This document shows, piece by piece, positions 12,001 through 39,556 of a DNA stretch of 39,556 nt. The number at the start of each line of letters is the position of its first letter. The first letter of the stretch is position 1. The notes under the pieces were generated by a model, which was not told where the DNA came from, did not search any database, and saw only the letters and a program-made list of their open reading frames with translations. Made by a program: the position numbers and the translations under genes. This DNA comes from Gemmatimonadota bacterium (GTDB taxonomy: Bacteria > Gemmatimonadota > Gemmatimonadetes > Gemmatimonadales > GWC2-71-9): contig JAZDCY010000057.1 of assembly GCA_036679645.1 (NCBI GenBank), positions 1 through 39,556 of the forward strand, read 5' to 3'.

Positions 12001-15000
12001 CCGGCGAACGTCGCTATCCCACCTGCGCTCGTGGTTGCGGTCCCGTTTGTCACGCTCGGTGTTCCGCCCGGTGATGTCGCCACGCTGGCCGCGACCAGCA
12101 CACCGCCCTGGTTAACCGCGTTACCGCTCGCATCCCGCAACTGTACCACCGGCTGCTCGGAGAGCGGCAGGCCACTCTGTCCGGCGGCCGACGGCTGGGT
12201 CGTGAGTGTGAGTTGGCTCGCTACCCCGGGCGTGACGTCGACGTTGCCTGAGGTCGCGGCGGACAGTGTCGCAGCTATGAAGCTGAGCGTACGCACCCCG
12301 ACGGTCCCGGTGATGCGCAGATTCGTGAAGCTCGCCACCCCACTCGCATTGGTCGTTGCCGTGAGCGTGCCGCCGAGAACACCCACTCCGGAGGCGATCG
12401 ATGCTGTCACGATCACACCCGTCTGACTCACCGCGTTGCCGGCTCCGTCACGCAGCTGCACAACCGGTTGCTGGGGGAACGCGACGCCGCTCTGAACCGT
12501 ACTGGACGGTTGCGTCGTCATCGACAACGCGGCCGCAGTACCCGCAGAAACAGTGATGGCTGCGGAAGTGGCACCGGTAAGGGTGGGCGCCGTGAAGGTC
12601 AACGTCCGTAACCCGATGGTCCCCGTGATCGTGAGATCGACAAACGTCGCGATACCGGAAGCATTGGTTGTGGCAGTGAGGGCGCCACCAAGTGCGCCGC
12701 CACCGGTAGCGATTGCCGCCGTGACGATGATTCCCGCTTGACTCGCGGGGTTGCCGCTCCCATCTCGCAGCTGAATGGTCGGCTGTGCGGGGAACGGAAT
12801 GGCGCTCTGGACCGCCGCCGACGGCTGCGCTGTGATTGAGAGTTGGGTCGGGGTGCCGGCAGTGAGCGACACGGCGGCGGAGGATATCCCGGTGAGGGTC
12901 GGAGCGCTAAAGCTCAGCGTCCGTGAGCCGATGGTACCAGTTAGCGTCAAATTGGTGAAGGTCGCCGTACCAGCAGCGTTGGTGCTCGCGTTGAGCGTAC
13001 CACCGAGGGTGCCGCCGCCAGTGGCAATCGCGGCGGCAACGACCACTCCGGCTGAGCTTACCGGGTTGCCGGCACCATCTTGCAGTTGGATCACCGGCTG
13101 TTGGCCAAGTACGATCCCGCTCTGCGCTGTCGCCGAGGGCTGCGTGATGATCGCCAGTTGCGCCGCTGCTCCCGCCACCAGATTGACCGTGTTCGAGGTG
13201 GCGCCCGTCAGCGTCGGGGCCGTGAAGCTCAACGTGCGCGGGCCGATCGTCCCCGTAACGCCGACATCAGTGAACGTTGCCACCCCGCTCGGGCTAGTCG
13301 TTGCCGTGAGCGTCCCGTCCAACGTCCCCGAGCCCAACGCCAGCGCGACCGTTACGACGGTCCCGGTCTGGCTCACGGCGTTGCCGGCCCCGTCCCGCAG
13401 CTGCACTACCGGCTGCTGGGCAAACGCGACGCCGCTCTGTGCCGTCGCCGACGGCTGCGTGGTCAATGTCAATTGCGCAGCCGTGCCCGGAGTTATCGTC
13501 ACCGTTCCCGACGTCACCGACTGGAACCCGGCGGCGGCGAAGATCACCGTCCGAGCTCCGATCAACCCGGTGATCTGAAGATCCGTGAACGTCGCCACCC
13601 CACTCGCATTCGTCGTCGCCGTCAGGGTGCCGCCCAGAGTACCACTCCCGGTCAGGATCGCCGTTATCACACCCACACCCGCCTGGGCCACGGCGTTGCC
13701 GCTACCGTCTTGGAGTTGGATTGCCGGCTGGAGACCGAAGACGATACCACTCTGCGCACTCGCCGACGGTTGCGTGGTGATGGCCAGTTGCGAGCCTGCA
13801 CCCGCACCGAGGGTGATGGTATTCGACGTTACCGGGGTGAGCGGAGCAGACGTAAACTGCAGCGTGTAGTCGCCCGTGGGGCCGGTGATGGCTAGATCAG
13901 TAAAGGCCGCGGTGCCATTGGCGTCGGTCGTCGTCGAGGGGTTCCCGTTCAACGTCCCGCCACCCGTGGCGATTGCAGCTGTCACCAGCACGCCGCTCTG
14001 ACTCACCGGATTGCCGGAGACATCCTGCAGTTGGACAAACGGCTGCTGTGTGAACACGACGCCGCTCTGTGCTGCTGCGGACGGCTGCGCCGTGAGCGAT
14101 AGCTGCGCGCCTACTCCGGCGCTCACGGCGATTGCGTTGGATGTCGCCCCCGTCAGCGAGGGCGCGCTGAAACTCAGCGTACGTGAGCCAATCGTGCCGG
14201 TAATCGCGAGGTCAGTGAAGGCGGCCACACCGCTGGCGTTGGTCGTCGCCGTGAGCGTGGTACCCAACGCTCCACCGCCCGTCGCGATGGCGGCGGTAAC
14301 CACCACCCCCGACTGGCTGACCGCGTTCCCGCTGGCGTCCTGCAACTGCACGCTCGGCTGCTGCGCAAACACAATCGCGTTCTGCACGCTGCCCGACGGT
14401 TGCACCGTGATCACCACAGCCGTCGCCGCCCCCGCGCCCAACGTTACCGTGCCTGACGTCACTCCTGTCAGCGTCGGCGCCGTGAAGCCCAACGTCCGCG
14501 GTCCGCTGGTTCCAGTGATAGTCAAATCCGTGAACGTTGCCACCCCACTCACCGACGTCGTCGCCATCAACGTCCCGCCCAAGGCGCCCCCACCAGTGGC
14601 TAGCGCCGCCGTGACCACTACGCCCGACTGGCTCACCGCGTTCCCCGCCCCATCACGCAGTTGCACCACCGGCTGCTGGACGAGCGGCACACCGCTCTCT
14701 GCACCCGCCGAGGGCTGCGTCGTGAGCGTCAACTGCGCTGCATCCCCCGCACTCAGCGTCACCGTGTTCGATGTCACGCCTGTCACACTCGGTGCGTCAA
14801 ACGACAGCGTGTACGCCCCGGTCAGACCCGTCACCGTCAACCCCGTAAAGGTCGCCACCCCGCTCGCGTTCGTCGTCCCCGTCGCGTTCGCTAGAGTCGG
14901 CGTGCCCCCGGGGTCGCTCGCGATCGTCGCCGTCACCACGACCCCCAGCGCGCTCACCGCATTCCCCGTCCCATCGCGCACCTGCACCACCGGCTGTGCC

Positions 15001-17600
15001 GACAGCGCCAGCCCGCTCTGGCCAGCCGCCCCTGGCTGCGTCGTCAGGCTCAGCTGCGCCGCCGTACCCGCCGCAAGCGTGATCGTCCCCGAGGTCGCCC
15101 CCGTCAAACTCGGCGCACCGAACGTCAGCGTGTAGCCGCCGATCGCGCCCGTCACCGTGAGCCCCGCGAACGTCGCCACACCACTCGCGTTCGTTGTGGC
15201 TGTAGCACTAGTGAGGCCTGGAGTACCGCCGGGATCCGTGGCGATCGTCGCCGTGACCACCACACCAGCCTGGCTCACGGGGTTGGCGCTCGCGTCCCGT
15301 AGCTGTACCACTGGCTGTTGCCCCAACACGATCCCGCTCTGCCCCGCCGCCGACGGCTGCGTCGTCAACGTCAACTGCGTCGCGGCACCCGCGCCCACGG
15401 TAATCGTCCCCGAGGTCGCGCCGGTCAACGAGGTGGCTGCGAAGCCAAGTGTTCGAGTGCCGGCGATTCCCGTAATGAGCAGGTCGGTGAACGCCGCGAC
15501 ACCACTTGCATTGGTGAGCAGGCTCAGCGTGCCACCCAGCGTTCCAGCGCCGGACTCGATCGTCGCAACGACCTGCACACCGGCCTGGCTCACGGCGTTC
15601 CCGCTCGCGTCACGCAACTGGATGACCGGTTGCTGCAAGAACAGCACACCGCTTTGCGCGTCCGCCGACGGCTGCGTGGTGATCGTCAACTGGTTAACCG
15701 GTCCGGCGCCCACGGTGATCGGATCGGACGTCGCCTGGGCGAGCAGTGGTGCCGTGAAGCGCAACGTGCGGACGCCGATGGTGCCCGAGAGACCGAGATC
15801 GGTGAACGCGGCTGTGCCGCCGGCGTTCGTCGTTGCGGTCGCAGTACCGCCGAGCGCGCCCCCGCCCGTCTCGACGGCCGCCGTCACGAGGACACCGCTC
15901 TGGCTCACGGCATTCCCCGCGGCGTCCTGTATCTGAACCACGGGCTGCTGCGGGAACGTCACGCCGCTCTGCGCCGCGCTCGACGGCTGGGTAGTGAGAA
16001 ACAGCTGGGCCGCGGCACCGGGACTCAGCGTAGTTGTGCCGGACGTGGCCGGCGTGAGGGAGGGCGCGGTGAATCTGAGCGTGTACGTGCCAACGGGTCC
16101 CGAGATGGAGAGATCGGAGAACGTCGCGATGCCGAAGGCGTCCGTTGAGGCGGTGAGCGCGCCACCGAGCGTACCTCCCGGACCAGAGGCGATCACGGCG
16201 GTGACGACCACGCCGCCCTGACTGACGGGGTTCCCGCCGGCATCCTGGATCTGGACGGCCGGCTGCGTGGTGAGAATCACGCCACTCTGCGCCGACGAGG
16301 GTGGCTGTGTCACGATCGCCAGTCCGCCGGCAGATCCGGCGGTCGCCATTGCCGTGAAGACAACCGGGCTACCCGCCAAACCAAACGACGTCGCGGTCAG
16401 CGTGTTCGTGCCGGCGACTGCGCTCAACGTCCATGACGTCGCGCTCGCGATTCCAGTGATTCCCGAGGTAACAGGCGTCGGGGGCGTGACTGCTCCGTTC
16501 CCGGGGGCCGCGGCGAACGTGACCTGGACACCGGACACGGGGTTTCCGCTGATGTCGGTGATCAGCACTGACGGGGGCGTCGCGACGGACGTGCCCACGA
16601 TGGCCGACTGGTTATTGCCGTCGTTCATGGCAATCTGGGCTGCGGCACCCGCCACGACGTCTATCCCGGTGGAAACCGGGTCTGGTGCCACACCCACCGC
16701 GGAGAATTGCAGCGTGCGAATGCCCGTGACGCCGGTGACGCGCAGGTCCGTGAACGCCGCGACCCCGCTCGCGTCGGTCGTGACGGTTAGGGTACCGCCC
16801 AACGTTCCGGCGCCTGTCGCGAGCGCCGCGGTTACGACGACTCCGCTCTGACCAACGGCGTTCTCCGCTGCGTCACGCAACTGCAGAACGGGCTGTGACG
16901 CGAACACGACGCCGTTCGCAACAGTTCCGGACGGTTGGGTAGTGATGGTGAGATGCGTCGCGGTCCCAGGGCTCAGGACCACCGCATTTGAGATCACCGC
17001 CGTGAGGTTGGGAACGGAGAACCTGATCGTGTACGTGCCGACCGGCCCGCTCAGCGTGAGAGCGCCAAAGGTGGCGATCCCCGCCGCGTCGGTGCTGGCG
17101 GTCGTCGAGGCAAGGACGCCGCCGAGCGGACCCGTTGCGATCTCGGCGGTCAGCGTGACGCCCGGCTGGTTCACCGGGTTGCCGTTGACGTCGCGGAGTT
17201 CGACGCGCGGTTGGACGGCAAAGGGTTGACCGCTCTGCGCTGCGCCCGATGGTTGTGTCAACACGGCCAGTTGCGTCGCGAGACCTGCCGTGATCGAAAA
17301 CGCGCTGCTCGAGGCATCCGGCAGACCGGCGGCGCTGGCCCGCAAGGCAAAGCCGCTGCCCGCGACGTTAATCGTCAGGTCGACGAACGTCGCCACGCCG
17401 TTGGCGCCGGCGACGGCAAGCGTCCCGCCGAGCGTCGCTCCCGGGACACCAGTACCAGGCGCAATCGCAATCGTAATCGTGCCGGCAAAGGCGGTATCCA
17501 CTCCCCCGCCGGGCTCGTGTGCCTCGACGACGATCGGCGGTGTTATGACCGCCCCCGCCGGAGTGTTATTGGGCTGTGTCGTGAAGACCAACTGGCTGGC
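1..17600 (-). repeat. ~56 tandem Ig-like repeats of 315/321 bp (105/107 aa)
   Basis: The 'DxxGNxV' motif recurs at ~52, 373, 694, 1015, 1330, 1651 ... 15910, 16228, 16540, 16858, 17176 and ~17495. Consensus is approximately GxAxQLxITTQPSxxAQSGxxFxQQPVxQLRDxxGNAVSQxGVVVTAxIATG..LTATTNASGVATFTxLxITGxIGxRTLxFxAxxLTGxTSxxITL. Confidence 0.9.
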
Positions 17601-19522
17601 GGGAACCGCAACCCGCAGGTCTGTCGCCGACTCAGAATTCGCACCGAACGGCGCCCACGCGCTGGCGTTCCCGAGACTGTCGACGGCGCGCGCCTGCCAG
17701 TGATAGTCCGTATCATCGTTCAGGCCCGGGACGCGCACGAACGCCGTCGTGCTACCCGGGCCGAGTGTGCCGCTCGCGGTGGGTACTCGAGTGAAGGCCT
17801 GGCCCAAAGGTAGTATCTCGACCTCCAGCCGAATCCGATCGCCAGGATCCGGATCCGTCAGCATCGCACCGACCACCACGGCGTTCTCACCCGTGGACGC
17901 GCCTAGTGCGATGAGCGACGTACTATCTGTCTGGAACTGCTCGAGACCCGACGGCACGTCTGGCACAGACGGGACGGCAACGAAGAAATCGGTAGCGCTC
18001 TCGGGATTCGCGCCGAAGGAGACCCAGGGGCCGCTGCGGCCGGTCTCGTCGACCGTGCGCGCCTGCCAGTGGTAGTTGGTGTTGTCGCTGAGTCCCGTGA
18101 CCGTCGCAAGCGCCGGTACGCCCGGCGGAACGAGCTGACTCGCACTGCTCACGATCTGGGTGAAGGGTGCTCCTATCGGCTGGATCTCGACCTCGAGGCG
18201 CAGCAAGTCGCCCGGATCCGGATCTGCCAACGTCCCCTGGAGAACGATGGTCGCCTCGTCTGTGGTACCTCCCACCGCGATGACGGTGACCTGATCGCTC
18301 TTGCGTTGTCCCAGCGATGCCGTGGTGAGTGGGGCCTCGGGAATCGCCACCTGAAAATCTGTGACACCTTCCGAGTTCCCGCCGAACGGTATCCACGCGC
18401 TCGCGCGTCCCGTGCGGTCGATCGCGCGGGCACGCCAGTGGAAGGGCGTATCGTCGGCAAGGCCGTCCACTCGCACGACCGCGGTATCACCAGAGGAGAC
18501 GAACGAAGTCCCTCAGCCGCCGCCGCCGGATTCGTGAAGGGGGTACCGATGGGCACGACCTCCACCTCGAGGCGGATCTGATCGGTCGTATCGGGATCGG
18601 TTACCACGGCGCGGAAGACCGCGCTGGTTTCCAGGATCGACGCGCCGACGGTCAGGACTGTGGTGCTGTCGCTGGCAAGCTGTTGCGGTGTGATGGGATC
18701 GGCCGGTGGGCGCGGTCGTGTCACTTCGAGTGAGAAGGTGCCGGTCGCGCGCGCGTCGGACGAGCTGACTTCGAGGAGGTAGTTCCCGCTTCGCGGAAGG
18801 AGCAGGTAGACAAAGCAGGCGTCGGGTGTCGTACCGAGGCAATCATCTGTCTGCGCCAGCGGTGGAGCTGCCGCCGCCGTCGCGCTGTCCACCGTGAGGA
18901 ACGGGTCGAAATCGGAAGACCGGACGGTGACGGTGATGGAGTCCCCACCCACCGCTGCCAAACGGAACAGCTTCCCAAATCGATCCGGGCGGTGTGGTGC
19001 CTCACAGTCGGCTTGTCCGAGGGAATCGGTTGCCACGCCATCGACCACCGCAGGCGAGACCGAGCAGGGCGTGATGTGGAACCGCACCGGGACCCGGACC
19101 GGATCACGGCCGGAACTCGGCACGTCGATGATCAACGTGTCGTTGTAGTCGGCGACGGCGAGCCCCGCCGGATTGAAGGTGAGGGTGACCGCCATTGGAG
19201 TTGACCCGCTCGTCGCCGACAGGGCCAGCCAGGTACTGCCGCGCGCACGCGAGGCGGTCCACGAGATCGACCCAGGGCCCTGGTTGTCGATTTCGAGCGT
19301 TACCTGGCGCAGCTGTGCGCTACCAACGGCCGCGGAATCGAGGAGGATCGCCTCCGAGATTACGAGCGACCCCAAGTCGGGTGTGGTCACGAGTTCGTCG
19401 AGCTTGCAGGTGGACAACAGCACGGCCGACACCGCCGAGAGGAGGCCGGCGATGACGCGGCGCGAGGTGCGCCGTGGGGTAGTAGCTGCCGTGGGGCCGG
19501 GAGGGGTCCCGAGTGGTCTCAC
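1..19522 (-). CDS. Giant repetitive Ig-like lipoprotein/adhesin (>6,500 aa, 3' end beyond window, 1-nt frameshift at ~18511)
   Basis: The N-terminal ~337 aa are in ORF 18173..19522: lipobox-like VLLST-C, BACON-like ISWTAS..WLALSATSGSTP, PPC-like GDSITVTVRSSDFDPFL..LPRSGNYLLEV. After GAG GG|ACT the protein continues in another frame (TSFVSSGDTAVVRVDGLADDTPFHWRARA...). I translated that frame at both ends (it reads ..GNAVAQLGTLITVTINANP at positions 59-3). The ORF track lists no stop-terminated ORF in this frame below 18512, and all antisense shadow ORFs from 565 to 17749 keep one phase, so the frame appears open to position 1. Confidence 0.9.
17605..18710 (-). repeat. Three tandem ~120-aa FN3-like repeats in the giant protein
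   Basis: Three copies of DPD..D.(I/L)RLEVE..P.G..FT...GL.D.T.(F/Y)HW.AR.(I/V)D..G....W..FG.N.E..TD. The first copy is cut by the frameshift. Confidence 0.75.
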
Positions 19523-30774: not shown

Positions 30775-31821
30775 ATGGCCACGACCCTGCTCAGACACGC
30801 CCTCGAGGCACGCCCGACAAAGGGAGAGGTCGCGCGCGTCAAGCGTAAGCGCATGAAGGAGTTTGCCCCGCAGGCGATCCTCGGTAAGCACCCCAAGATC
30901 GAGGAGGTACGGCACTTCGTCAGCCGGATCGCCGACATCCCCCGCCCGACGGTCCTGCTCCTCGGCGAAAGCGGGACTGGCAAGAATCTGGTCGCCCGCG
31001 CAATTCATTACTCGAGTCCACATTCCACCGGACGATTCGTCGAAGTCAACTGCTCGGCGCTCCCGTCGCAGCTCCTGGAATCAGAGCTGTTCGGCTACCA
31101 GAAGGGAGCGTTTACCGGCGCCCGCGAGTCGAAGCGCGGGTTGATCGAGGTGGCCGATGCCGGGACCCTCTTCCTCGACGAGATCGCCGATCTCTCCCCG
31201 GAGCTTCAGGCCAAACTGCTCAACTTTCTGGAGTCCCGACGATTCCGACGGGTGGGCGCTACCGAGGAAATCGAGGTCAACCTGCGGCTCATAACGGCCA
31301 CGAACCGCGACCTGGAGGAGGCGGTGCGTAACGGACTGTTCCGCAACGATCTGTACTACCGGGTCAGTGTGGCGACTCATACCCTCCCGCCGCTCCGGGA
31401 GGTCAAGGAGGATATCCCCCTTCTGGCTCATCACTTCCGAGAGGTTTTCAGGCGGGAGTTCCGCAAGGAGGTCAGCTCCATCAGCCCGGAGGCTCTCGAA
31501 GTCTTTCAGCAGCGGGACTGGCCGGGCAACGTGAGGGAGCTGCGGAATGTCATCGAGCGGGCGATGGTTTTCACCGACCGGGCCGTGCTCGACGCCGCCG
31601 ACCTTCCCAAGATGGGCACGCTCGATGTTACCGCCGCGCCGGCTGATAGCAGGGACGCGTTCCAGATCCCGAAAGATCTGACGCTGGCCCACGTGGAGAA
31701 GGAATACATCCGCCGGACCATGGATGACGGTGAGCCATCGGTGGAGCAGGCCGCCGAGATCCTCGGCATCTCTCGGAAGAGCCTGTGGGCGAAGCGAAAG
31801 AGGTATGGACTGCTCGAATAG
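30775..31821 (+). CDS. Sigma-54 enhancer-binding protein (AAA+ plus Fis HTH) lacking an N-terminal sensory domain
   Basis: GESGTGKN, ESELFG..KGAFTGA, LFLDEI, FRNDLYYR, WPGNVRELRN and a C-terminal HTH. GGGAGGA RBS precedes the ATG; only ~33 aa come before the AAA+ domain. Confidence 0.93.
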   Translation: MATTLLRHALEARPTKGEVARVKRKRMKEFAPQAILGKHPKIEEVRHFVSRIADIPRPTVLLLGESGTGKNLVARAIHYSSPHSTGRFVEVNCSALPSQLLESELFGYQKGAFTGARESKRGLIEVADAGTLFLDEIADLSPELQAKLLNFLESRRFRRVGATEEIEVNLRLITATNRDLEEAVRNGLFRNDLYYRVSVATHTLPPLREVKEDIPLLAHHFREVFRREFRKEVSSISPEALEVFQQRDWPGNVRELRNVIERAMVFTDRAVLDAADLPKMGTLDVTAAPADSRDAFQIPKDLTLAHVEKEYIRRTMDDGEPSVEQAAEILGISRKSLWAKRKRYGLLE

Positions 31822-31971: not shown

Positions 31972-34656
31972 ATGAGCCCTGTGCCGCGCGTCTCGATCCG
32001 CTACCGCCCTCGTACTTTCGTTTCGTCGCTCGGGCTGGCGGCGCTCGGGCTGGTCCTCCTGAGCACACAAGCGTCCGCCCAGGGGTGGTACAGCCCCAAC
32101 TGGCAGTACCGGAGGTCCATCACGGTGGATCGCACCAACGTGAGCGGCACTGTGACGAACTTCCCTATGCTGGTCTTCCTGGGCTCGGACGGCGATCTGG
32201 CCGCCGACGCACGGGACGACGGCTTCGACATCCTCTTCACGTCGTCGGACGGCACCTCGAAGCTGTCCCACCAGATCGAGAAGTTCGACGGAGGCACGGG
32301 CGAGCTGGCGGCGTGGGTGAAGATGCCGGGTCTGTCGTCCGCGGCGGACAGCGTCATCTACATGTACTATGGTTACGCCTCCGCCCCGGACCAGCAGGAC
32401 GTCTCCAACGTGTGGGACGTCAACTATAAAGGAGTCTGGCACCTCCACGACGACTTCCTGGACGCCACGGGCAACGCCAACGGGACCAACCAGGGCTCTA
32501 CGGACACCACCGGGAAGATTGCGGACGGTCAGAGCTTCGACGGCGTCAACGATGACATCTCACTGGGAACCGGCTGCCTCGTGTTGTCGAGTTGGACGGT
32601 GGAGTTCTGGGTGAAGCCCAACTCTCCGGGCAACTATGAGCGGATCTTCATCCAGGGCGCCAGCGGGTGCGCCAGCCGGCAGATCATGCTCTACTGGCAC
32701 ACCGACCACATCGAGATCCGAACTAGCACTGGGAGCGCCGGCAATCCCCAGGCAGCGTCCCTGAGCATCACAAACGGGGTGTGGACCCACCTCACGTGGA
32801 CCTCTACCGCCACCACCGGAACCCTTTACCGGAACGGCCAGTCCGGCCTGGGAACGATCACGGGCGGCAACGTGGGGGTGGACGGGGCCAACTTCATCGG
32901 CGCCCGCAACGGCGGCAATTACTGGACCGGCGACCTGGACGAGGTGCGAGTGTCCAACCTCGTTCGCTCCGCCAATTGGGTCCAGACATCCTACAACAAC
33001 CAGAATTCTCCCGGCTCCTTCATCACGCTGGGTAGCGAGCAGGTGATCGACACGAGCACTCCGGCCGCCGTCACCGACCTGGCCACCGGCGTCGTGACCT
33101 CGTCATCGGTCGTCCTCAGCTGGACGGCCCCCGGCGATGACGGCAGCGCGGGCACCGCCAGCTCCTACGACGTCCGCTACTCCACGAGCACGATCACCGA
33201 GGCCAATTGGGCGTCAGCCACGCAGGCAAGCGGAGAGCCTTCCCCGCAGGTCGCGGGCAGTGCCGAGTCGTTCACGGTCACGGGGCTCAGCTCGGGCACC
33301 ACGTATTACTTCGCGATCAAGACCTCGGACGAAATCCCGAACGAGAGCGCGCTCTCCAACGTGCCGAGCGCAGCCACGATCGGCGACATCGTCACGCAGA
33401 CCGGGTACGCCTGGTCGGAGGACGTAACGAGCTTCACGTCGAAAGGCGACGACGTGCCGCTGGATATGCTGATCGGGACGACCTACGTCCTGGGTATCCA
33501 GGTCTCCATGACCTTGGGAGCCGCCAGCGGCGATTGGGTGCTGCAGGTGCGCGAGGACGGAGCCGGCTCGTGGCTCAACGTGTTTGCTTTGGGCGCCGGC
33601 GACAGCCCTGTGTGGGAGACGGATGCGACGCACACGTTCAGCAAGTCCAACGGTGTGGTGGTCACGACCGCGGAGTTCGGCAACGGCACGGCGCCCGCGG
33701 GCTTCACTGCCGTCGACGGCGAGTTCTCGGACGATAACAACGGCCTGACCGACGGATACGCGGGCACCGACATCTACACGGAGCTGCAGTACACAGTGAG
33801 GGCCCAGGCGGCCGCCGCGGGCCACTGGTATGAGTTCCGCGTCCTGTATAACGGGACGGTGCTGAACGCGTACGACGTGTACGCTCTGACCGAGACCTAT
33901 GCGGTCAGCGTGACCCCCGACGGGAGCGACACCCTCTCTGTGCTGCCGTCCAACGGCACTCCGTCCTCATACGCCTTCAGCGTCACCAACAACTCCAACG
34001 CCACCGAAGAATTCGACCTCCTAGGCTTTCCCGGTGACACCCTCGCCACCTTCCTGACCGTCGACTCGATCACCGGGCCCAACGTAACCGGGGCGCCAGC
34101 CGTGCCCGACAGCGCCCGCATGGCCAGCGTCGCGGTCAGCGGCAGCGACAACGCCTTCGTGTGGTACAGCGTGGCCAACGTTGCTGCCGGCACGCTCGAT
34201 TCCCTGTATCTCGAGGGACGTTCCGTAACCGACAACTCCGTCAGCGACTCCGGCTGGGTGTTCGTCCAAGTCATCAAGCCCAACGTGGCCACTGCCAAGG
34301 CGGTGAACCCTAGTGGAACCCAGCTACCAGGCACCAATCTCACCTACACCGTCACCATCACCAACGATGGGAGCGATGACGCTGTCAACTTGGTGATCAT
34401 CGACTCGCTGGCCGTCGAGGTCCAGTTTCAGGTTAGCAGCATCGTGAACAACTTGCCGTCCGGAATCACGGTCACCGTGGAGTACTCCAACGACGGCGGA
34501 AGCACCTGGACCTACACCCCCGTCAGCACCGGCTGCGCCGCACCCGCGGGCTACGACGCGTGCGTCACCCACATCCGCTGGTCCCTCCAGAACGACTTGA
34601 GCCATGTCGCTCCGGACAACACCGGCAACGTGGAGTTCGGCGCCCGAATCAAGTAG
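31972..34656 (+). CDS. Secreted DUF2341 + LamG/ConA-like + FN3 + C-terminal DUF11 protein (putative tip adhesin)
   Basis: Signal peptide ending ASA-Q. W...WQYRRSITVD, DILFTSSDG..KLSHQIE and IYMYYG (DUF2341). WTVEFWVKP..GDLDEVRVSN (LamG). LSWTAPGDDG..YDVRYS (FN3). AKAVNP..PGTNLTYTVTITNDG..IIDSL (DUF11). Confidence 0.85.
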   Translation: MSPVPRVSIRYRPRTFVSSLGLAALGLVLLSTQASAQGWYSPNWQYRRSITVDRTNVSGTVTNFPMLVFLGSDGDLAADARDDGFDILFTSSDGTSKLSHQIEKFDGGTGELAAWVKMPGLSSAADSVIYMYYGYASAPDQQDVSNVWDVNYKGVWHLHDDFLDATGNANGTNQGSTDTTGKIADGQSFDGVNDDISLGTGCLVLSSWTVEFWVKPNSPGNYERIFIQGASGCASRQIMLYWHTDHIEIRTSTGSAGNPQAASLSITNGVWTHLTWTSTATTGTLYRNGQSGLGTITGGNVGVDGANFIGARNGGNYWTGDLDEVRVSNLVRSANWVQTSYNNQNSPGSFITLGSEQVIDTSTPAAVTDLATGVVTSSSVVLSWTAPGDDGSAGTASSYDVRYSTSTITEANWASATQASGEPSPQVAGSAESFTVTGLSSGTTYYFAIKTSDEIPNESALSNVPSAATIGDIVTQTGYAWSEDVTSFTSKGDDVPLDMLIGTTYVLGIQVSMTLGAASGDWVLQVREDGAGSWLNVFALGAGDSPVWETDATHTFSKSNGVVVTTAEFGNGTAPAGFTAVDGEFSDDNNGLTDGYAGTDIYTELQYTVRAQAAAAGHWYEFRVLYNGTVLNAYDVYALTETYAVSVTPDGSDTLSVLPSNGTPSSYAFSVTNNSNATEEFDLLGFPGDTLATFLTVDSITGPNVTGAPAVPDSARMASVAVSGSDNAFVWYSVANVAAGTLDSLYLEGRSVTDNSVSDSGWVFVQVIKPNVATAKAVNPSGTQLPGTNLTYTVTITNDGSDDAVNLVIIDSLAVEVQFQVSSIVNNLPSGITVTVEYSNDGGSTWTYTPVSTGCAAPAGYDACVTHIRWSLQNDLSHVAPDNTGNVEFGARIK

Positions 34657-34707
34657 CTACGCGTACCGCCCCGATCCACTCCAGCGACCCAGTCGCCACA
34701 CCGTACT

Positions 34708-34739
34708 GCGTTACCAGAAGCGTTACCGTCGGGTAACGC
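34708..34739. promoter_or_regulatory. Candidate upstream activator sequence GCGTTACC-N4-GGTAACGC plus extra half-site
   Basis: Perfect 8-bp inverted repeat at 34720-34739, with a direct copy of GCGTTACC at 34708-34715. It lies ~110 bp upstream of the -24 element. Confidence 0.6.
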
Positions 34740-34836
34740 GATCACAAAACTGAGCCATCGCGAGCCACTCCCTCCAAGCACCATAAGTAGCTGCAGTACT
34801 GCTACTTACGTGTCCATGTGGCACAGGCCTGGAGTG

Positions 34837-34852
34837 TGGCACAGCCCCTGCA
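34837..34852 (+). promoter_or_regulatory. Sigma-54 -24/-12 promoter
   Basis: TGGCAC-AGCCC-CTGCA with exact GG-N10-GC spacing, upstream of the DUF11 operon and 3 kb from a GAFTGA activator. Confidence 0.7.
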
Positions 34853-34880
34853 CTCAGGCAGGTTCGACGACAACAGCAAC

Positions 34881-35078
34881 GTGGAGATACTAGTGGTTCT
34901 GAGCTGCCCGAATTGCGACAGCAACGACCGGTACGCACCGGGTGACTTCTTAGGGAACTGGGTTGTCTGCCCCAGGTGCGAAACGCCCTTCGGATGGCAG
35001 CAGACGCGGACCGATCGATATGCCGACGGCGCGATGCGGATTGCGGCCGGATCCGAAACAAAGGAGATCGAGCAATGA
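34881..35078 (+). CDS. Small zinc-ribbon protein (two CxxC pairs)
   Basis: SCPNCDSNDRYAPGDFLGNWVVCPRCETPF. The stop overlaps the next start (ATGA). No clear RBS; start is uncertain. Confidence 0.5.
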   Translation: MEILVVLSCPNCDSNDRYAPGDFLGNWVVCPRCETPFGWQQTRTDRYADGAMRIAAGSETKEIEQ

Positions 35079-35653
35079 GGAGCTGGCGACAGGTGTGGGT
35101 TGTGGCAACGACCGCTGCCGCGCTGTGGGGCGCGCCCGCCGTTGCACAGAACGGGGAGGGTGCCGAAGCACTCGCGATTACGGCGGAAAACATCATGGCA
35201 GGCGACGCCCGCCACCAGGCGCTCGCGGAACGGGGAGGCGATCCGAACGCGCTCTTTCCCGGGGACATCGTGCACTACCGGCTGGTGTTCACGAACGTCA
35301 CCGGCGCACCCGTGCGCAGGGTTGAGTTCAGGGACCCGCTTCCGGGCGGGTTGCGGTACGTGGCCGGGTCCGCGGCCTCCGATCGGGACGACATCGTGAT
35401 CGAGTACTCGATCGACGGCGGAGCGTCGTTCTTGGTGCAGCCCATGATCGAGGAGATCATCGACGGCGAGCGGGTGCAGAAACCGGCGCCGCCGGAGCGA
35501 TACACGGACGTCCGTTGGCGCGTGACGGGCTGGGTGCAACCCGACGCGCACGTGCTCGCGGAATTCCGGGCGGAGCTGCCTCAGGCAGTCCCTGTACTAC
35601 AGACGTCTATCGAGGAGCCGGGCAACGGGCAGGCTTCCCTTCCGAGTCGATAA
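35075..35653 (+). CDS. Secreted single DUF11-like domain protein
   Basis: AAGGAG RBS and signal peptide ending AVA-Q. PGDIVHYRLVFTN...FRDPLPGGLRYVAGSA...EYSIDGG..YTDVRW. Confidence 0.85.
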   Translation: MRSWRQVWVVATTAAALWGAPAVAQNGEGAEALAITAENIMAGDARHQALAERGGDPNALFPGDIVHYRLVFTNVTGAPVRRVEFRDPLPGGLRYVAGSAASDRDDIVIEYSIDGGASFLVQPMIEEIIDGERVQKPAPPERYTDVRWRVTGWVQPDAHVLAEFRAELPQAVPVLQTSIEEPGNGQASLPSR

Positions 35654-35676
35654 CGCAGGCGTAGGGGGAGACAAGC

Positions 35677-36903
35677 ATGTCGAGACTACAGAGATGGGTC
35701 CGCACCCTGGCGTTGGCCGGCATTATCGCGGCCCTGGCCGGGACGACTGCGCGGGCGCAGACGCCGGAGGGCACCGTCATCACGAACACGGCGACGGTGA
35801 ACTGGACCGACGCCAACAGCAATTCGTACACCCCGGTCATCGCGAACGTGAGCGTCACGGTCGGATTCCAGGCTGGTATCGACGTGATCGCGGCGGCGGC
35901 CGCGGTGAACCCGGCGTCGCCCAGCACTGCGGACACGCTCACGTTAACGGTGCAGAACATCGGGAACGGCACCGATAGCGTGACGATCTCGGAATCGATC
36001 TCGGTTGGCGGGATCATCACCGTTACCGGCTATCGGTACGGCGTGACCACGTACGCCTCGCTGGCGGCTCTGAACACCGCGCTGTCCAGCGTGGCGATCG
36101 CGCAGGGCGCCAGCATCGCCATCAAGGTGGTCTACGACGTGGCGGCAGGACAGGGTGGTCAGCCGACCGTCTACACCATGACGGCCGCGTCGCGGCGTAC
36201 ACCGGCTGTGTCGGACTTCGACGCCACCACGATCACTCCAGGCGAGACGATCGCTGCGGCGGTGACGCCGGACGGTGCGCAGAACGTGCAGCAGCTGCCA
36301 AGCAACGGCACGAACTACACCTTCACCTTCACCGTGCAGAACAACGGTAACGGGCCGGAAGACTTCGATCTACTGGCGTCAAGCCCCGGTTCGGCGGTGA
36401 TCAGCATCGTGTCGGTGAACGCGGTGGCCGGAGACAGCACGCAAATCAACCTGGCGTCCGGCGTGTCGACGACCATCGACGTCGTGTATTCGGTCGCCGA
36501 CGTACCAGCCGGCAGCACCGACACCCTGAGCTTGCGGGCTCGCTCCGTCACGAACAGCACGATCTTCGATGACGGGTTCGCCGATCTCACGGTGATTCGC
36601 CCGTCGATCACGATTGCCAAGGACGCGTTTCGCGACGACCAGGTGACGCCCATTGGTGCCGGTACGGTCGTTCCGGGTGAGTTCATGCAGTACCGGATTA
36701 CGGTCACCAATGCCGGCGACGCGAACGCATCCACCGTTCACATCGATGACCTCCTACCGGCGGAAGTGGCGTACGTGTCCAACAGTCCCGACGCCGCCGG
36801 TTGGACCATCGTGAACGCTGGGAACGACGTGGATGCAGATCTGTCCGGAACATTAGCGCCCGCCGCAAGCAGGTTCTTCTGGATCCGGGTTCAGGTCAAC
36901 TAG
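35677..36903 (+). CDS. Secreted DUF11 protein, putative major fibre subunit
   Basis: GGGGGAG RBS and signal peptide ending ARA-Q. Mature N-terminus QTPEGTVITNTATVNW, two Ig-like domains, and C-terminal DUF11 IAKDA..PGEFMQYRITVTNAG..IDDLLP..FWIRVQVN*. Confidence 0.88.
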   Translation: MSRLQRWVRTLALAGIIAALAGTTARAQTPEGTVITNTATVNWTDANSNSYTPVIANVSVTVGFQAGIDVIAAAAAVNPASPSTADTLTLTVQNIGNGTDSVTISESISVGGIITVTGYRYGVTTYASLAALNTALSSVAIAQGASIAIKVVYDVAAGQGGQPTVYTMTAASRRTPAVSDFDATTITPGETIAAAVTPDGAQNVQQLPSNGTNYTFTFTVQNNGNGPEDFDLLASSPGSAVISIVSVNAVAGDSTQINLASGVSTTIDVVYSVADVPAGSTDTLSLRARSVTNSTIFDDGFADLTVIRPSITIAKDAFRDDQVTPIGAGTVVPGEFMQYRITVTNAGDANASTVHIDDLLPAEVAYVSNSPDAAGWTIVNAGNDVDADLSGTLAPAASRFFWIRVQVN

Positions 36904-36919
36904 GCGCGGTGAGTCTCCC

Positions 36920-37834
36920 ATGCAGTCGTTCGCCGTACTGCACGGCGAGGCGGCGCAGGGGCACTGTTCCGGTCACGTGATCGGCCGGGTCCTCTGCGCG
37001 CTCGTCGCTCTGGCGCTCATCGCGCCATCGGCGGGGGCGCAGACCCCGGCCGGCACACAAATCAGTTCTCGGGCGCTGGTCAGCTACGAGGACCCGAGCG
37101 GGCTTCAGTACACCGCCGAGTCCAACACGCTCGTCTTGATCGTCGCACAAGCGGCGGGCGTGGACATCGAGGCGCCGCGCTCGACCATCGGTGACCCCGG
37201 AACTACGGTCGTATTCAGTCACACAGTCACGAATATCGGTAACGCCACCGACAGTGTAATGGTCGGTGCCACCTCGCGGGTGGGTTGGCCTACCCGCGTG
37301 CACCTGGACGCGAACGCTGACGGCGCGCTGGATGCAGGTGATCCGCAGATCGTCGGTCCTATCACTCTCTCCATGGGCGAGGCCGCGCCGTTGCTCCTGG
37401 CGGTCGACGTCCCGGGAACGGCTGCCGTCCGCGGTACGGTGGATACCATCGCCGTCACGGCGATGAGTACGACCGACGGGGCCGCATCCGATGCCCTGCA
37501 GAACGTCTTGACCATCCGCGACGTCGGGATCGTCGTTACCCTGAGCAAAGTCGTCGACCGACCGAGCGCCACGACCGGCGATATCCTGACCTATACGATC
37601 AGCTACGCCGTCGTCGGATCGGGTAAGGCCGACAGCCTCGTCATCACCGATCCAATCCCGTTGGGTACGTCCTACGTGCCCGGCACCATGCGATGGAACG
37701 CCGCGCCACTGACCGACACCGACGGCGACGACGCCGGCTTCTTCGATGTTGTCGCCAATCGCGTCGTCTTCCGACCCGGCACGGTCTTTGGCGGGGACAG
37801 CGGAACCGTCACGTTCCAGGTGCGGGTGAGCTGA
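36920..37834 (+). CDS. Secreted DUF11 protein, putative minor subunit
   Basis: Signal peptide ending AGA-Q. QTPAGTQISSRALVSY, DANADGALDAGD acidic loop, and C-terminal LSKVVD..GDILTYTI..ITDPIP..VTFQVRVS*. Confidence 0.88.
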   Translation: MQSFAVLHGEAAQGHCSGHVIGRVLCALVALALIAPSAGAQTPAGTQISSRALVSYEDPSGLQYTAESNTLVLIVAQAAGVDIEAPRSTIGDPGTTVVFSHTVTNIGNATDSVMVGATSRVGWPTRVHLDANADGALDAGDPQIVGPITLSMGEAAPLLLAVDVPGTAAVRGTVDTIAVTAMSTTDGAASDALQNVLTIRDVGIVVTLSKVVDRPSATTGDILTYTISYAVVGSGKADSLVITDPIPLGTSYVPGTMRWNAAPLTDTDGDDAGFFDVVANRVVFRPGTVFGGDSGTVTFQVRVS

Positions 37835-39556
37835 TGTCACACCGCGGGCGGCAGACGTGGTCTCGCGTTTTCGCGCGTCGCACCCTCGAGTCGTGTGCGC
37901 TGGCTGCGGCCGTGCTCGCGTCTACGCGGCTCCAGGCACAGACCGTCCTGTCCAATACGGCCGCGGCGACCTATGAAACGATCGCCGGGAGGGACTCGGT
38001 CGGCTCGAACACCGTCGAGACAACGCTCGTCTTTCCAGACCTCTTTGTCGAGAAGGCGCTCAGCGGTCCCAGCCTGGCGCGGATCGGAGAGGAGGTACGC
38101 TACACGATCCGCTACAGCAACGCCTCGGGCGCGGCAATCGCGCGGAATGTCGAACTGATCGACACGCTGCCGGTCGGACTCGAGTTCGTTTCCTCCCAAC
38201 CGACAGCGCAAGTCGCCGGTCAGATCCTGACATGGAACCTGGGCGATATGGCGCCGGGCGACTCGTCGAGCGTTATGCTCACCGCGCGTGTGAGCGAACA
38301 GGTGCGCGATACCGTGTACGTGCGGAATATGGCGCTGCTCCTGGCACTCAACTCCAGAACAGAGGCGGCTGTCGCCGCAGGCGTTCAGTTGGTAGGCGTG
38401 TTCAGCACACAGCTCTCACTCGAAAAGTCGGCGGATGTGTTGGAGGTGGGCATCGGCGAGACCGCACCCTATACGCTGGTGTTGGAAAACACGGGATCCG
38501 CGCCAATCTCCGATCTGCGCGTTCACGATAGGCTCCCCGAAGGAGCGAGATACGCGAGAGGGAGCGTACTCGGCGCAGACTCGGTCCAGGTCGACGGGCG
38601 CCGCCTGACGCTGTTCATTGCCGGTCCGCTGGCCCCGCGCGCCCGGCATACGGTCCGCTACGCGGTGGCCGTCGTCTCCGCCGAGAGTGACGTCATCGGC
38701 AACACTGCGTACGCCACTGCCGAGGGGGAGTTCGTCCGGTCGGAGGATGTGGTGGCGTGGCTGCGTGTGCGCAGAAGCTGGCCCATGGAGACCCGCGCCG
38801 CGATCGGGAAGGTGTGGGTCGACCTGGATGGTGATGGCGGACAGGATGCCGGCGAGCCGGGCGTTGAGGGCGTGGATGTTTGGACTGACGACGGAGAGGT
38901 TGCAAGTACCGACACCGAGGGCAAGTTCTCGTTCCGCAACCTCCGGCCCGGGCGTCACGTCTTCCGGCTCGACCGAAGCACCGTGCCGGCAGCCTATGGG
39001 CTCCCGCGACAGGGCCCAACTGAAGACCTGGTCGCGTTCGACGCCGACGGCTGGACGACCCCACGTATCAACTTCCAACTCGTACCGCGTGGCGGCAGAG
39101 TCACACAGGTTCATCTCCCCGTCCCCTGGCGCTTCACAGCCCGTCCGCTCGGCGGCAGCCGTCTGGAGACCATGCAGCGCGTGGAAGACGAGCGTCCGAT
39201 ACCGGTTGTCCAGAACCCACTCGCGCTGGCGCGACGCCCGGCCCAGACGCTCACGGAACGGCCCGAGTGCTCCGTCGAGGTCGCCGGGTATGCCGATCCC
39301 CGTCCCATCCGGGGCGACCGGTTTCGGGACAACTGGCAACTGCCCGCTTCCCGAGCTGACTCCGCAGCCCAGCTTGTGAGCGCGCTGGGGGTCCCAGAGC
39401 CCCGGCTGACCGTGCGGGGCTCCGGCGCCACCCAGCCAGTGCCGGCGGGGACAGATCCTCTCTTGCTGAGACTGAAACGGCGTGCCGAGGGCCGGCTCAT
39501 CTGTCCCAAACCGAACACGCTCGTGGCCGAGCGGCCGGTGGTTGAGTACGAGGTAC
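37834..39556 (+). CDS. Large DUF11 x2 + SdrD-B/Cna-like + OmpA/MotB-like protein (partial, runs off window)
   Basis: Not in the ORF track. ATG overlaps the previous stop (TGATG) and the frame is open to the window end. Motifs: QTVLSNTAAATY; VEKALSG..IDTLP..VRNMA; LEKSAD..HDRLP..IGNTAYA; GKVWVDLDGDGGQDAGEPGVEGV..TDTEGKFSF; VEVAGYAD..NWQL..SRA..LGVPEPRLTVRGSGATQPV..KRR. Confidence 0.88.
   Translation, partial: MSHRGRQTWSRVFARRTLESCALAAAVLASTRLQAQTVLSNTAAATYETIAGRDSVGSNTVETTLVFPDLFVEKALSGPSLARIGEEVRYTIRYSNASGAAIARNVELIDTLPVGLEFVSSQPTAQVAGQILTWNLGDMAPGDSSSVMLTARVSEQVRDTVYVRNMALLLALNSRTEAAVAAGVQLVGVFSTQLSLEKSADVLEVGIGETAPYTLVLENTGSAPISDLRVHDRLPEGARYARGSVLGADSVQVDGRRLTLFIAGPLAPRARHTVRYAVAVVSAESDVIGNTAYATAEGEFVRSEDVVAWLRVRRSWPMETRAAIGKVWVDLDGDGGQDAGEPGVEGVDVWTDDGEVASTDTEGKFSFRNLRPGRHVFRLDRSTVPAAYGLPRQGPTEDLVAFDADGWTTPRINFQLVPRGGRVTQVHLPVPWRFTARPLGGSRLETMQRVEDERPIPVVQNPLALARRPAQTLTERPECSVEVAGYADPRPIRGDRFRDNWQLPASRADSAAQLVSALGVPEPRLTVRGSGATQPVPAGTDPLLLRLKRRAEGRLICPKPNTLVAERPVVEYEV

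Follow-up and report, generated by a model that had tools for sequence, protein, structure and literature searches.

A Gemmatimonadota operon with DUF11 domains divided between neighbouring proteins: a candidate head-to-tail surface fibre

The P1-P5 operon and its conservation

We analysed a stretch of 39,556 nucleotides from a Gemmatimonadota bacterium (assembly GCA_036679645.1, contig JAZDCY010000057.1, positions 1-39,556 of the forward strand), which we refer to as the window, and describe an operon on it whose products may be the subunits of a surface fibre held together by split DUF11 domains. The operon occupies the 3' quarter of the window on the + strand; it has a gene for a sigma-54 regulator as its upstream neighbour and consists of five genes in the order P1-P2-P3-P4-P5, and the names of homologues point to Gemmatimonadota. 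All five P proteins have a signal peptide with an Ala-x-Ala site followed by Gln. The features on which the analysis is built are given below, where an acceptor is a DUF11 domain that ends before its last strands, and a donor hairpin is the two-stranded segment directly after a signal peptide.

30775..31821, + strand: sigma-54 enhancer-binding protein with AAA+ and Fis-type helix-turn-helix (HTH) domains (Pfam Sigma54_activat, E 1.6e-64; HTH_8)
31972..34656, + strand: P1, predicted tip adhesin of 894 amino acids (aa), with signal peptide, DUF2341, LamG, fn3 and Ig-like domains and a C-terminal truncated DUF11 acceptor
35075..35653, + strand: P2, 192 aa, with signal peptide and a single truncated DUF11-like acceptor (TIGR01451, 35.6 bits, cut-off 24)
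35677..36903, + strand: P3, predicted shaft subunit of 408 aa, with signal peptide, donor hairpin, two Ig-like (CARDB-like) domains and a truncated DUF11 acceptor
35758..35868, + strand: donor hairpin of P3, residues 28-64, with Asn37 at codon 35785
36592..36900, + strand: acceptor domain of P3, residues 306-408, seven strands, with Lys315 at codon 36619 and Asp357/358 at codons 36745/36748
36920..37834, + strand: P4, predicted adaptor of 304 aa, with signal peptide, donor hairpin, Ig-like domain and a truncated DUF11 acceptor
37040-37150, + strand: donor hairpin of P4, with Ser50 at the Asn position
37834..39556, + strand, open at the contig end: P5, predicted base, first 574 aa, with signal peptide, hairpin, two whole DUF11 domains, an SdrD_B/CnaB-like domain and the start of an OmpA-like domain
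37939-38034, + strand: donor hairpin of P5, with Asn41 at codon 37954

Additional landmarks are the mature N-terminus of P1 at Gln37, its Lys776 (codon 34297) and Asp811 (codon 34402), and Lys210 (codon 37547) and Asp244 (codon 37649) of the P4 acceptor; the stop codon of P4 and the ATG of P5 overlap by one base. The reading frames and coordinates given in an initial annotation of this DNA are right, and the codons that it named for the Asn, the Lys and the two Asp residues of P3 are exact. The four-part set of proteins on which that annotation was built was incomplete, however, as it overlooked the conserved fifth protein, P2.

By a pattern scan of one genome per species we found 76 related loci, all of them in Gemmatimonadota. 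The gene order regulator-P1-P2-P3-P4-P5 is conserved across these loci, so that the operon synteny, which had been proposed as a check of the initial annotation, was indeed found to be held. A homologue of the sigma-54 activator lies upstream of P1 in 31 of the 76 loci, and P2 lies between P1 and P3 in 66 of them. P2 resembles the last domain of P1, minus the head and the Lys, and it is speculation on our part, drawn from this resemblance, that it might be an alternative, non-covalent cap without a head, or else keep free hairpins bound. Among 201 genomes sampled evenly from the phylum, 20, the window's own included, have a P3 match (E up to 1e-20), and within the family of the window's genome it is matched in 18 of the 96 other genomes; the window's own genome has one copy.

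The predicted mature proteins P1 to P5 start with Gln at 32080, 35147, 35758, 37040 and 37939, and the Gln-Thr start of P3 is invariant among 35 homologues. An N-terminal pyroglutamate is conceivable, as is a role of the Gln at the joint between proteins.

Truncated acceptors, donor hairpins and natural fusions

The acceptor DUF11/CLIPPER domains of P1, P3 and P4 stop at about profile position 84-88, in line with the claim of the initial annotation that the C-terminal DUF11 domains of the proteins starting at 31972, 35677 and 36920 are truncated. The Pfam DUF11 match of P3 spans profile positions 11-84 of 114, with residue 407 of 408 as the last one matched, and in the P4 homologue of a related locus (L001) it covers positions 2-84 of 114 (residues 209-306 of 308). 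When compared by hhalign with an alignment of complete DUF11 domains, residues 306-408 of P3 fall on its positions 1-88 of 124 (probability 97.9, E 3.8e-13), and the C-termini of P1 and P2 have the same final (seventh) strand as the other acceptors. The Pfam DUF11 scores of P3 (42.0 bits), P4 (28.1) and P5 (87.6) are above the cut-off of 24.6, those of P1 (22.5) and P2 (16.1) are below it, and TIGR01451 is found above its cut-off of 24 in all five P proteins (26.8 to 66.9 bits). Hidden Markov models (HMMs) built from the whole domains of P5 match the acceptors of P1-P4, and not the hairpins.

An AlphaFold2 (AF2) model of P3 was obtained with a mean predicted local distance difference test (pLDDT) score of 89.2 and a predicted template modelling score of 0.66. 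When residues 306-408 of this model were compared by VIA-align with the CLIPPER structure 9ifr_A, 91 of 123 residues were aligned with Z 10.1, a root-mean-square deviation of 1.9 Å and 20% identity; many other Ig-like chains score close to 9IFR, so that the fold alone is unspecific. A profile of the P3 family gave no match to solved structures at E up to 10, and Atlas searches returned unnamed or DUF11 clusters only.

P5 differs from the other proteins in having whole domains. Both DUF11 domains that the initial annotation had read as complete in the protein starting at 37834 do contain Lys, Asp and Asn in one chain (K74/D110/N165 and K198/D232/N290), whereas the last domains of P1, P3 and P4 have the Lys and the Asp and end before the Asn strand. 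The spacing between Lys and Asn in P5 is 91 and 92 residues, and Lys715 and Asn806 of the domain in PDB entry 9IFR are 91 residues apart (PMC12617251). As a separate observation, the acceptor of P1 has an insert (~34520-34570, residues about 850-866) without a counterpart in P3 or P4, containing a Cys pair that is present in most aligned homologues and may form a disulfide.

A donor hairpin is present in P3, P4 and P5 and is absent in P1 and P2. That of P3 is modelled with confidence in the AF2 monomer, as a pair of strands (34-41 and 54-61) immediately behind the signal peptide, and it is the best-conserved region of the protein, with 10 of its 38 positions invariant among 35 homologues as compared to 13-15% in the other domains. 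The view that the missing Asn strand is to be found after the signal peptides holds in so far as all three proteins have the hairpin, but not for the Asn itself in P4, which has Ser50 instead. In P5 a hairpin is present and every DUF11 domain is whole, while P1 and P2 each have an acceptor and lack a hairpin; judged from the sequences, the tally of acceptors and hairpins of P1, P2 and P5 balances only across proteins.

How the two halves belong together can be read from natural fusions. Of the 66 loci with both P4 and P5, 52 have them in one reading frame, about 50 of these cleanly (in two of the 52, an N-run or garbled frames obscure the state, and three rows scored as split are unclear as well). 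In these fusions the last strand of P4 is followed by a few residues without a signal peptide, then by the hairpin and then by the first whole domain of P5, and the Pfam DUF11 match runs across the junction (positions 3-109 and 4-110 of 114). In the split state, which is found in 11 loci and in the window, a stop codon follows the last strand and a new signal peptide precedes the hairpin. According to a quick maximum-likelihood tree of P3 (58 rows, with partial P3 proteins and rows of unclear state left out), the split/fused state switched five times, and at least two of these switches are required by branches with good support. P3-P4 fusions are found in two of 120 listed metagenome proteins (P0015 and P0069) and, as a protein of 687 aa, in G070, the genome of a member of the same genus, and in them the P4 hairpin comes directly after the last strand of P3. 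Long open frames upstream of P2 or P3 in some loci were considered as P1-P2 or P2-P3 fusions and rejected, as they are read-through in high-GC DNA.

A DUF11 domain that is repeatedly cut and rejoined at one loop must be reconstituted when it is cut. In addition, since the groove of P4 is filled by the contiguous P5 hairpin in the fused form, P4's own hairpin must bind another protein, and the P3-P4 fusions indicate that this partner is P3. Thus, the two kinds of natural fusion give the order P3, P4, P5, and P1 or P2 is placed before P3 by elimination. Most likely, therefore, in terms of these sequences, the hairpins complete the domain of the preceding protein in trans, in an order that runs from P1 at the tip through P3 and P4 to P5 at the base. 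Complementation in trans and the order P3, P4, P5 had both been put forward in the initial annotation, and the fusions support them.

Isopeptide residues, the P5 base and the proposed assembly

The residues that could form Lys-Asn isopeptide bonds were counted over the alignment rows of the window and the related loci. In P3, the position of Lys315 is Lys in 75 of 75 rows, that of Asp358 is Asp in 73 of 74, and that of the hairpin residue Asn37 is Asn in 68 of 71 (two Asp and one Ser). The acceptor of P4 has its Lys in 67/68 and its Asp in 66/66 rows, and the hairpin of P5 has its Asn in 65/66. P1 has its Asp in all 45 rows and its Lys in 30 of 44 (Asn in 11), and the Asn of the P4 hairpin is found in 49 of 75. 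P2 has Glu38 at the Lys position, for which Lys occurs in 0 of the 40 rows printed, and at its Asp position 35 of 66 rows have Asp and the other 31 have Asn. In the P3-P4 fusions, the Lys of P3 is replaced by Gln or Ala and that of the P4 acceptor by Thr. At the locus of G070 (L081, G070:C11, 1208-3271 and 3159-8993), where P3 and P4 are fused and both acceptor Lys residues are replaced, the Lys of the first P5 domain has also changed, to Met, and the lineage seems, from its sequence, to be losing its isopeptide residues.

In the window, these residues would make a Lys-Asn bond possible at the P1-P3, P3-P3 and P4-P5 joints. The P3-P4 joint of the window cannot form one because P4 has Ser50 in its hairpin, by which the bond that the initial annotation implied at this joint is ruled out. 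Across the loci, the residue counts suggest that covalent locking is likely to be common and dispensable in some lineages.

The outer-membrane part of the system is missing in the window because P5 is cut at the window edge. The protein continues on another contig of the same genome (C65, locus L077, bases 3-3806), and its full-length homologue in L001 has 1818 aa. From its N-terminus, P5 consists of the hairpin, the two DUF11 domains, the CnaB-like SdrD_B domain, the OmpA-like domain, ~600 residues with weak Ig-like matches and a C-terminal beta region. The AF2 model of the C-terminal 720 aa (pLDDT 79.7) consists of beta structure throughout; it has about 30 long strands, into which a small beta-sandwich is inserted. 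In a Foldseek search with this region, the best match is the 30-strand SlpA of Deinococcus (E 4e-9, template modelling score (TM) 0.37-0.39), followed by LptD and TonB-dependent receptors, and FimD is at rank 20 (TM 0.24). A search for homologues of the barrel gave matches at the level of Gemmatimonadota only, among the matches listed. We therefore describe the C-terminus of P5 as a predicted, very large outer-membrane barrel in which no usher can be recognised. With its hairpin and OmpA-like domain, P5 corresponds to the donor-bearing anchor that had been proposed. The initial annotation had further remarked that no classical usher or chaperone was visible; none is found in the Pfam scans, but P5 has its own huge predicted outer-membrane barrel.

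At the other end, the conservation of P1 across loci is limited to about 250 C-terminal residues, and the heads vary. Among 17 orthologues scanned, LamG/DUF2341 heads are found in the window and in L001, and the heads at other loci are made of PATR repeats, a beta-helix or additional DUF11 domains. In the P1 homologues of L030, L020, L062 and L006, PATR repeats or a right-handed beta-helix replace LamG/DUF2341, so that different heads are carried on the same acceptor module. Being without a hairpin and having heads that vary between loci, P1 agrees with its earlier description as an acceptor-only tip. PATR repeats and the beta-helix are typical of exposed adhesins, and because the P1 heads vary in this way we infer that the fibre is exposed at the surface.

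Based on these results, we hold it moderately probable that the five exported proteins join head to tail by hairpin complementation and form a tip-shaft-adaptor-base fibre that is likely locked by Lys-Asn bonds at some of its joints. All five P proteins would be exported by the Sec pathway. The P3 hairpin would be received by P1, the adhesin with the variable head, or by the small Lys-less P2, and P3 would likely also take the hairpins of further P3 molecules, giving rise to a repeating shaft. The last P3 would take the P4 hairpin, in a joint that would be non-covalent in the window owing to the Ser, and the P5 hairpin would be received by P4. P5 would then anchor the chain twice, with its OmpA-like domain at the peptidoglycan and with its predicted ~30-strand barrel in the outer membrane; this barrel would be the likeliest route to the surface, and the fibre would presumably pass through it. 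At those joints where Lys, Asp and Asn are all present, an isopeptide bond may form spontaneously and make the joint irreversible, as it does in whole CLIPPER domains.

Provided that complementation occurs in trans, the pattern of conservation makes it fairly likely that P3 repeats, although this is the least secure step of the proposal. P3 is the sole protein with a near-invariant donor Asn plus an invariant acceptor Lys. It is unfused to P1 or P2 in the related loci, and both of its ends are free in all 75 genome loci, whereas most loci have a fusion at the P4-P5 joint, which has no bearing on polymerisation. The Lys and Asn of P3 are kept also in loci where P4 is without the Asn (26/75) or P1 is without the Lys (14/44). 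Repetition of P3 is thus favoured by its free ends, by a Lys and an Asn that are kept without one-to-one partners, and by the loss of the Lys in P3-P4 fusions, which block the groove.

Several observations weigh against the fibre as proposed, and part of them would fit an adhesin that is split but of fixed stoichiometry, in which one P1 (or P2), P3, P4 and P5 associate in trans and P3 does not repeat. The fusions show that the line-up also works in a fixed order: the joints are interchangeable with peptide bonds, as the 52 of 66 fused P4-P5 pairs and the at least two changes of state demonstrate, and in P0015, P0069 and G070 the groove of P3 is filled in cis. Whole single-chain DUF11 stalks are, moreover, the norm of the family according to the accessible text of the CLIPPER paper (PMC12617251). 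The Lys-Asp-Asn set is not universal either, as the P4 hairpin Asn is missing in 26 of 75 rows, including that of the window, the Lys of P1 is missing in 14 of 44, and P2 never has it. The fused P3-P4 protein of G070, from the same genus, with both of its acceptor Lys residues replaced, implies that covalent locking and P3 repetition are not essential everywhere. On the other hand, a fixed stalk does not explain why the ends of P3 are free in 75 genome loci when P4 and P5 fuse freely, why Lys315 and Asn37 of P3 are conserved where its only one-to-one partners are without Asn or Lys, or why it is precisely the P3-P4 fusions that have lost the Lys, and we regard such a stalk as possible but rather unlikely.

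The remaining objections concern the hairpins and the topology of P5. By hhalign, the isolated hairpins of P3 and P4 map to positions 91-108 of 124 of whole DUF11, Asn on Asn, but these alignments are not significant (P3, E 0.15 and 0.09 when reversed; P4, E 0.014 and 0.46 when reversed). HMMs of the DUF11 tail only gave scores near zero against the hairpins; with one tail HMM, the best match lay in the N-terminus of P3 in 63 of 71 targets versus 22 of 65 reversed controls, and with the other there was no enrichment. In the AF2 monomer of P3, the protein's own hairpin is placed with high confidence (pLDDT 87-89), which would suit a circularly permuted DUF11 in which each hairpin occupies the C-terminal domain of its own protein, leaving P3 and P4 as monomers closed on themselves that do not form a chain; the major subunit of the haloarchaeal tafi has been modelled as closed before activation (PMC11821415). 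Such self-complementation is very unlikely, since it leaves P1 and P2 truncated without a hairpin and P5 with a hairpin and no truncated domain, since in the fused majority form the P5 hairpin fills the P4 acceptor and the P4 hairpin goes elsewhere, and since the P3-P4 fusions show likewise for P3. It should also be noted that the OmpA-like domain of P5 sits between the N-terminal stalk and the barrel, and that the stalk would therefore have to pass through a pore on its way to the surface. Outer-membrane barrels usually have their termini in the periplasm, and together with the OmpA-like domain that adjoins the stalk this would be in keeping with a periplasmic tether between peptidoglycan and outer membrane, held by the OmpA-like domain and the barrel. 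We nevertheless consider a tether very improbable: the P1 heads are variable, with PATR repeats and a beta-helix as in exposed adhesins, and a barrel of ~30 strands is bigger than an anchor needs.

Related systems and genomic surroundings

In literature searches, with supplements outside their scope, no printed description of a split DUF11 fibre was found. The accessible part of the paper in which DUF11 is renamed CLIPPER deals with intramolecular isopeptide bonds only (PMC12617251), and the accessible part of a preprint describes single-chain DUF11 grappling hooks (bioRxiv 10.1101/2025.08.19.671072). As far as the former text goes, DUF11/CLIPPER domains (PF01345; 9IFR) agree with the whole domains of P5 in family, in fold and in the spacing of the Lys in the first strand, the Asp and the Asn in the penultimate strand, and they are likewise stalk domains of diderm surface adhesins. 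They differ in that they are whole, with the bond within the chain, whereas here the last two strands and the Asn are on another polypeptide and the bond would join two proteins (PMC12617251).

The proposed fibre would work like chaperone-usher pili and exchange-and-lock fibres, and it is a member of neither group. With the chaperone-usher pili (type 1, P) it would have in common a receive-only tip, subunits whose donor is N-terminal and whose groove lies towards the C-terminus, a donate-only last subunit, and a polarity with the tip first and the base last. It differs from them in that a CnaA-like domain contributes two strands, as a hairpin, where those pili donate one, in that covalent locking is possible, and in that base, peptidoglycan anchor and barrel are one protein; no PapD-like chaperone and no PF00577 usher were found in Pfam scans of P1-P5, including the rest of P5, and the regulator. 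As to sortase-type pili, there is no LPXTG sorting signal, P1-P4 end on their last beta-strand, and no sortase family was found in the proteins scanned. Type V pili (Fim/Mfa of Bacteroidota) are made from lipoprotein precursors by proteolysis and have a C-terminal donor, whereas the P proteins have no lipobox Cys and their donors are N-terminal. Neither a TasA/camelysin fold nor a SipW-type signal peptidase was found in the Pfam and NCBIfam scans, the subunits being composed of DUF11 and Ig-like domains. In SpyTag/SpyCatcher, an engineered split of CnaB2, tag and catcher reconstitute the domain and ligate spontaneously through a Lys-Asp bond. This is likewise a split isopeptide domain, but a man-made one of the CnaB type, whereas the split described here is natural, recurrent and would serve multi-protein assembly.

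Exchange-and-lock fibres, which combine donor-strand complementation with an intermolecular isopeptide bond and need no sortase, have been described for BsaA of C. perfringens (bioRxiv 10.1101/2024.11.04.621531) and for Sulfolobus threads (PMC9715654). In the accessible parts of these sources, the subunits have a TasA-like or thread fold, the hosts are monoderm or archaeal and have no outer membrane, and the fibres are homopolymers without a split adhesin domain. The haloarchaeal tafi, for which a LamG tip, an adaptor, a major subunit and a membrane anchor with N-terminal donor strands have been modelled, are alike in this architecture; they are archaeal, depend on twin-arginine translocation (Tat) for export, consist of DUF1102-type subunits and differ in polarity and anchor, and no isopeptide residues are reported in the accessible text (PMC11821415).

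A more far-reaching view, which we offer only tentatively and hold to be doubtful, is that the operon represents a distinct covalent class of diderm pilus, in which natural Tag/Catcher-like halves of CLIPPER polymerise P3 into an isopeptide-locked shaft under an exchangeable tip and P5, through which the fibre is threaded, acts as pore, terminator and peptidoglycan anchor, with no sortase, no chaperone and no separate usher. If the proposed assembly is true, bacteria with an outer membrane would have another route to build fibres, with subunits that ligate themselves via a split isopeptide domain. Self-ligation of this kind is so far associated with SpyTag/SpyCatcher engineering, a clostridial matrix fibre and archaeal threads. 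The role of isopeptide domains in diderms would be extended from bonds within a chain, as in the accessible CLIPPER text (PMC12617251), to bonds that join subunits. Because the operon has three different hairpin-acceptor pairs, it would also provide a natural set of orthogonal tags and catchers, and a conserved, unannotated gene cluster of soil Gemmatimonadota would be given a function. That one joint has been fused and split repeatedly amounts to a rare experiment of nature, by which the idea becomes directly testable with short peptides and single domains.

With respect to regulation, the sigma-54 activator of the window is without a receiver domain, whereas its homologue in L001 has one; the alignment of the two begins at residue 124 of 469. 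Between the stop codon of the activator and the start of P1 (31842-31958) lies a fragment resembling a Fis-type HTH, with 45% identity to residues 428-467. The sequence of this receiver-less activator and second HTH fragment suggests a past rearrangement. No match to the sigma-54 -24/-12 element is found upstream of P1. One such match with a single mismatch is present at 34837-34851 (+), 224 bases upstream of P2, and was rejected as a promoter candidate, as it is not conserved (2 of 61 related loci) and the count of such matches over the window equals chance.

At the opposite end of the window, a giant open reading frame on the - strand (3-18476, at least 6158 aa) runs off the window start. 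It contains many CarboxypepD_reg-like repeats (E 1.9e-79, 4999 aa scanned) as well as DUF2057 matches, and, judged by these repeats, probably encodes a giant repeat surface protein.

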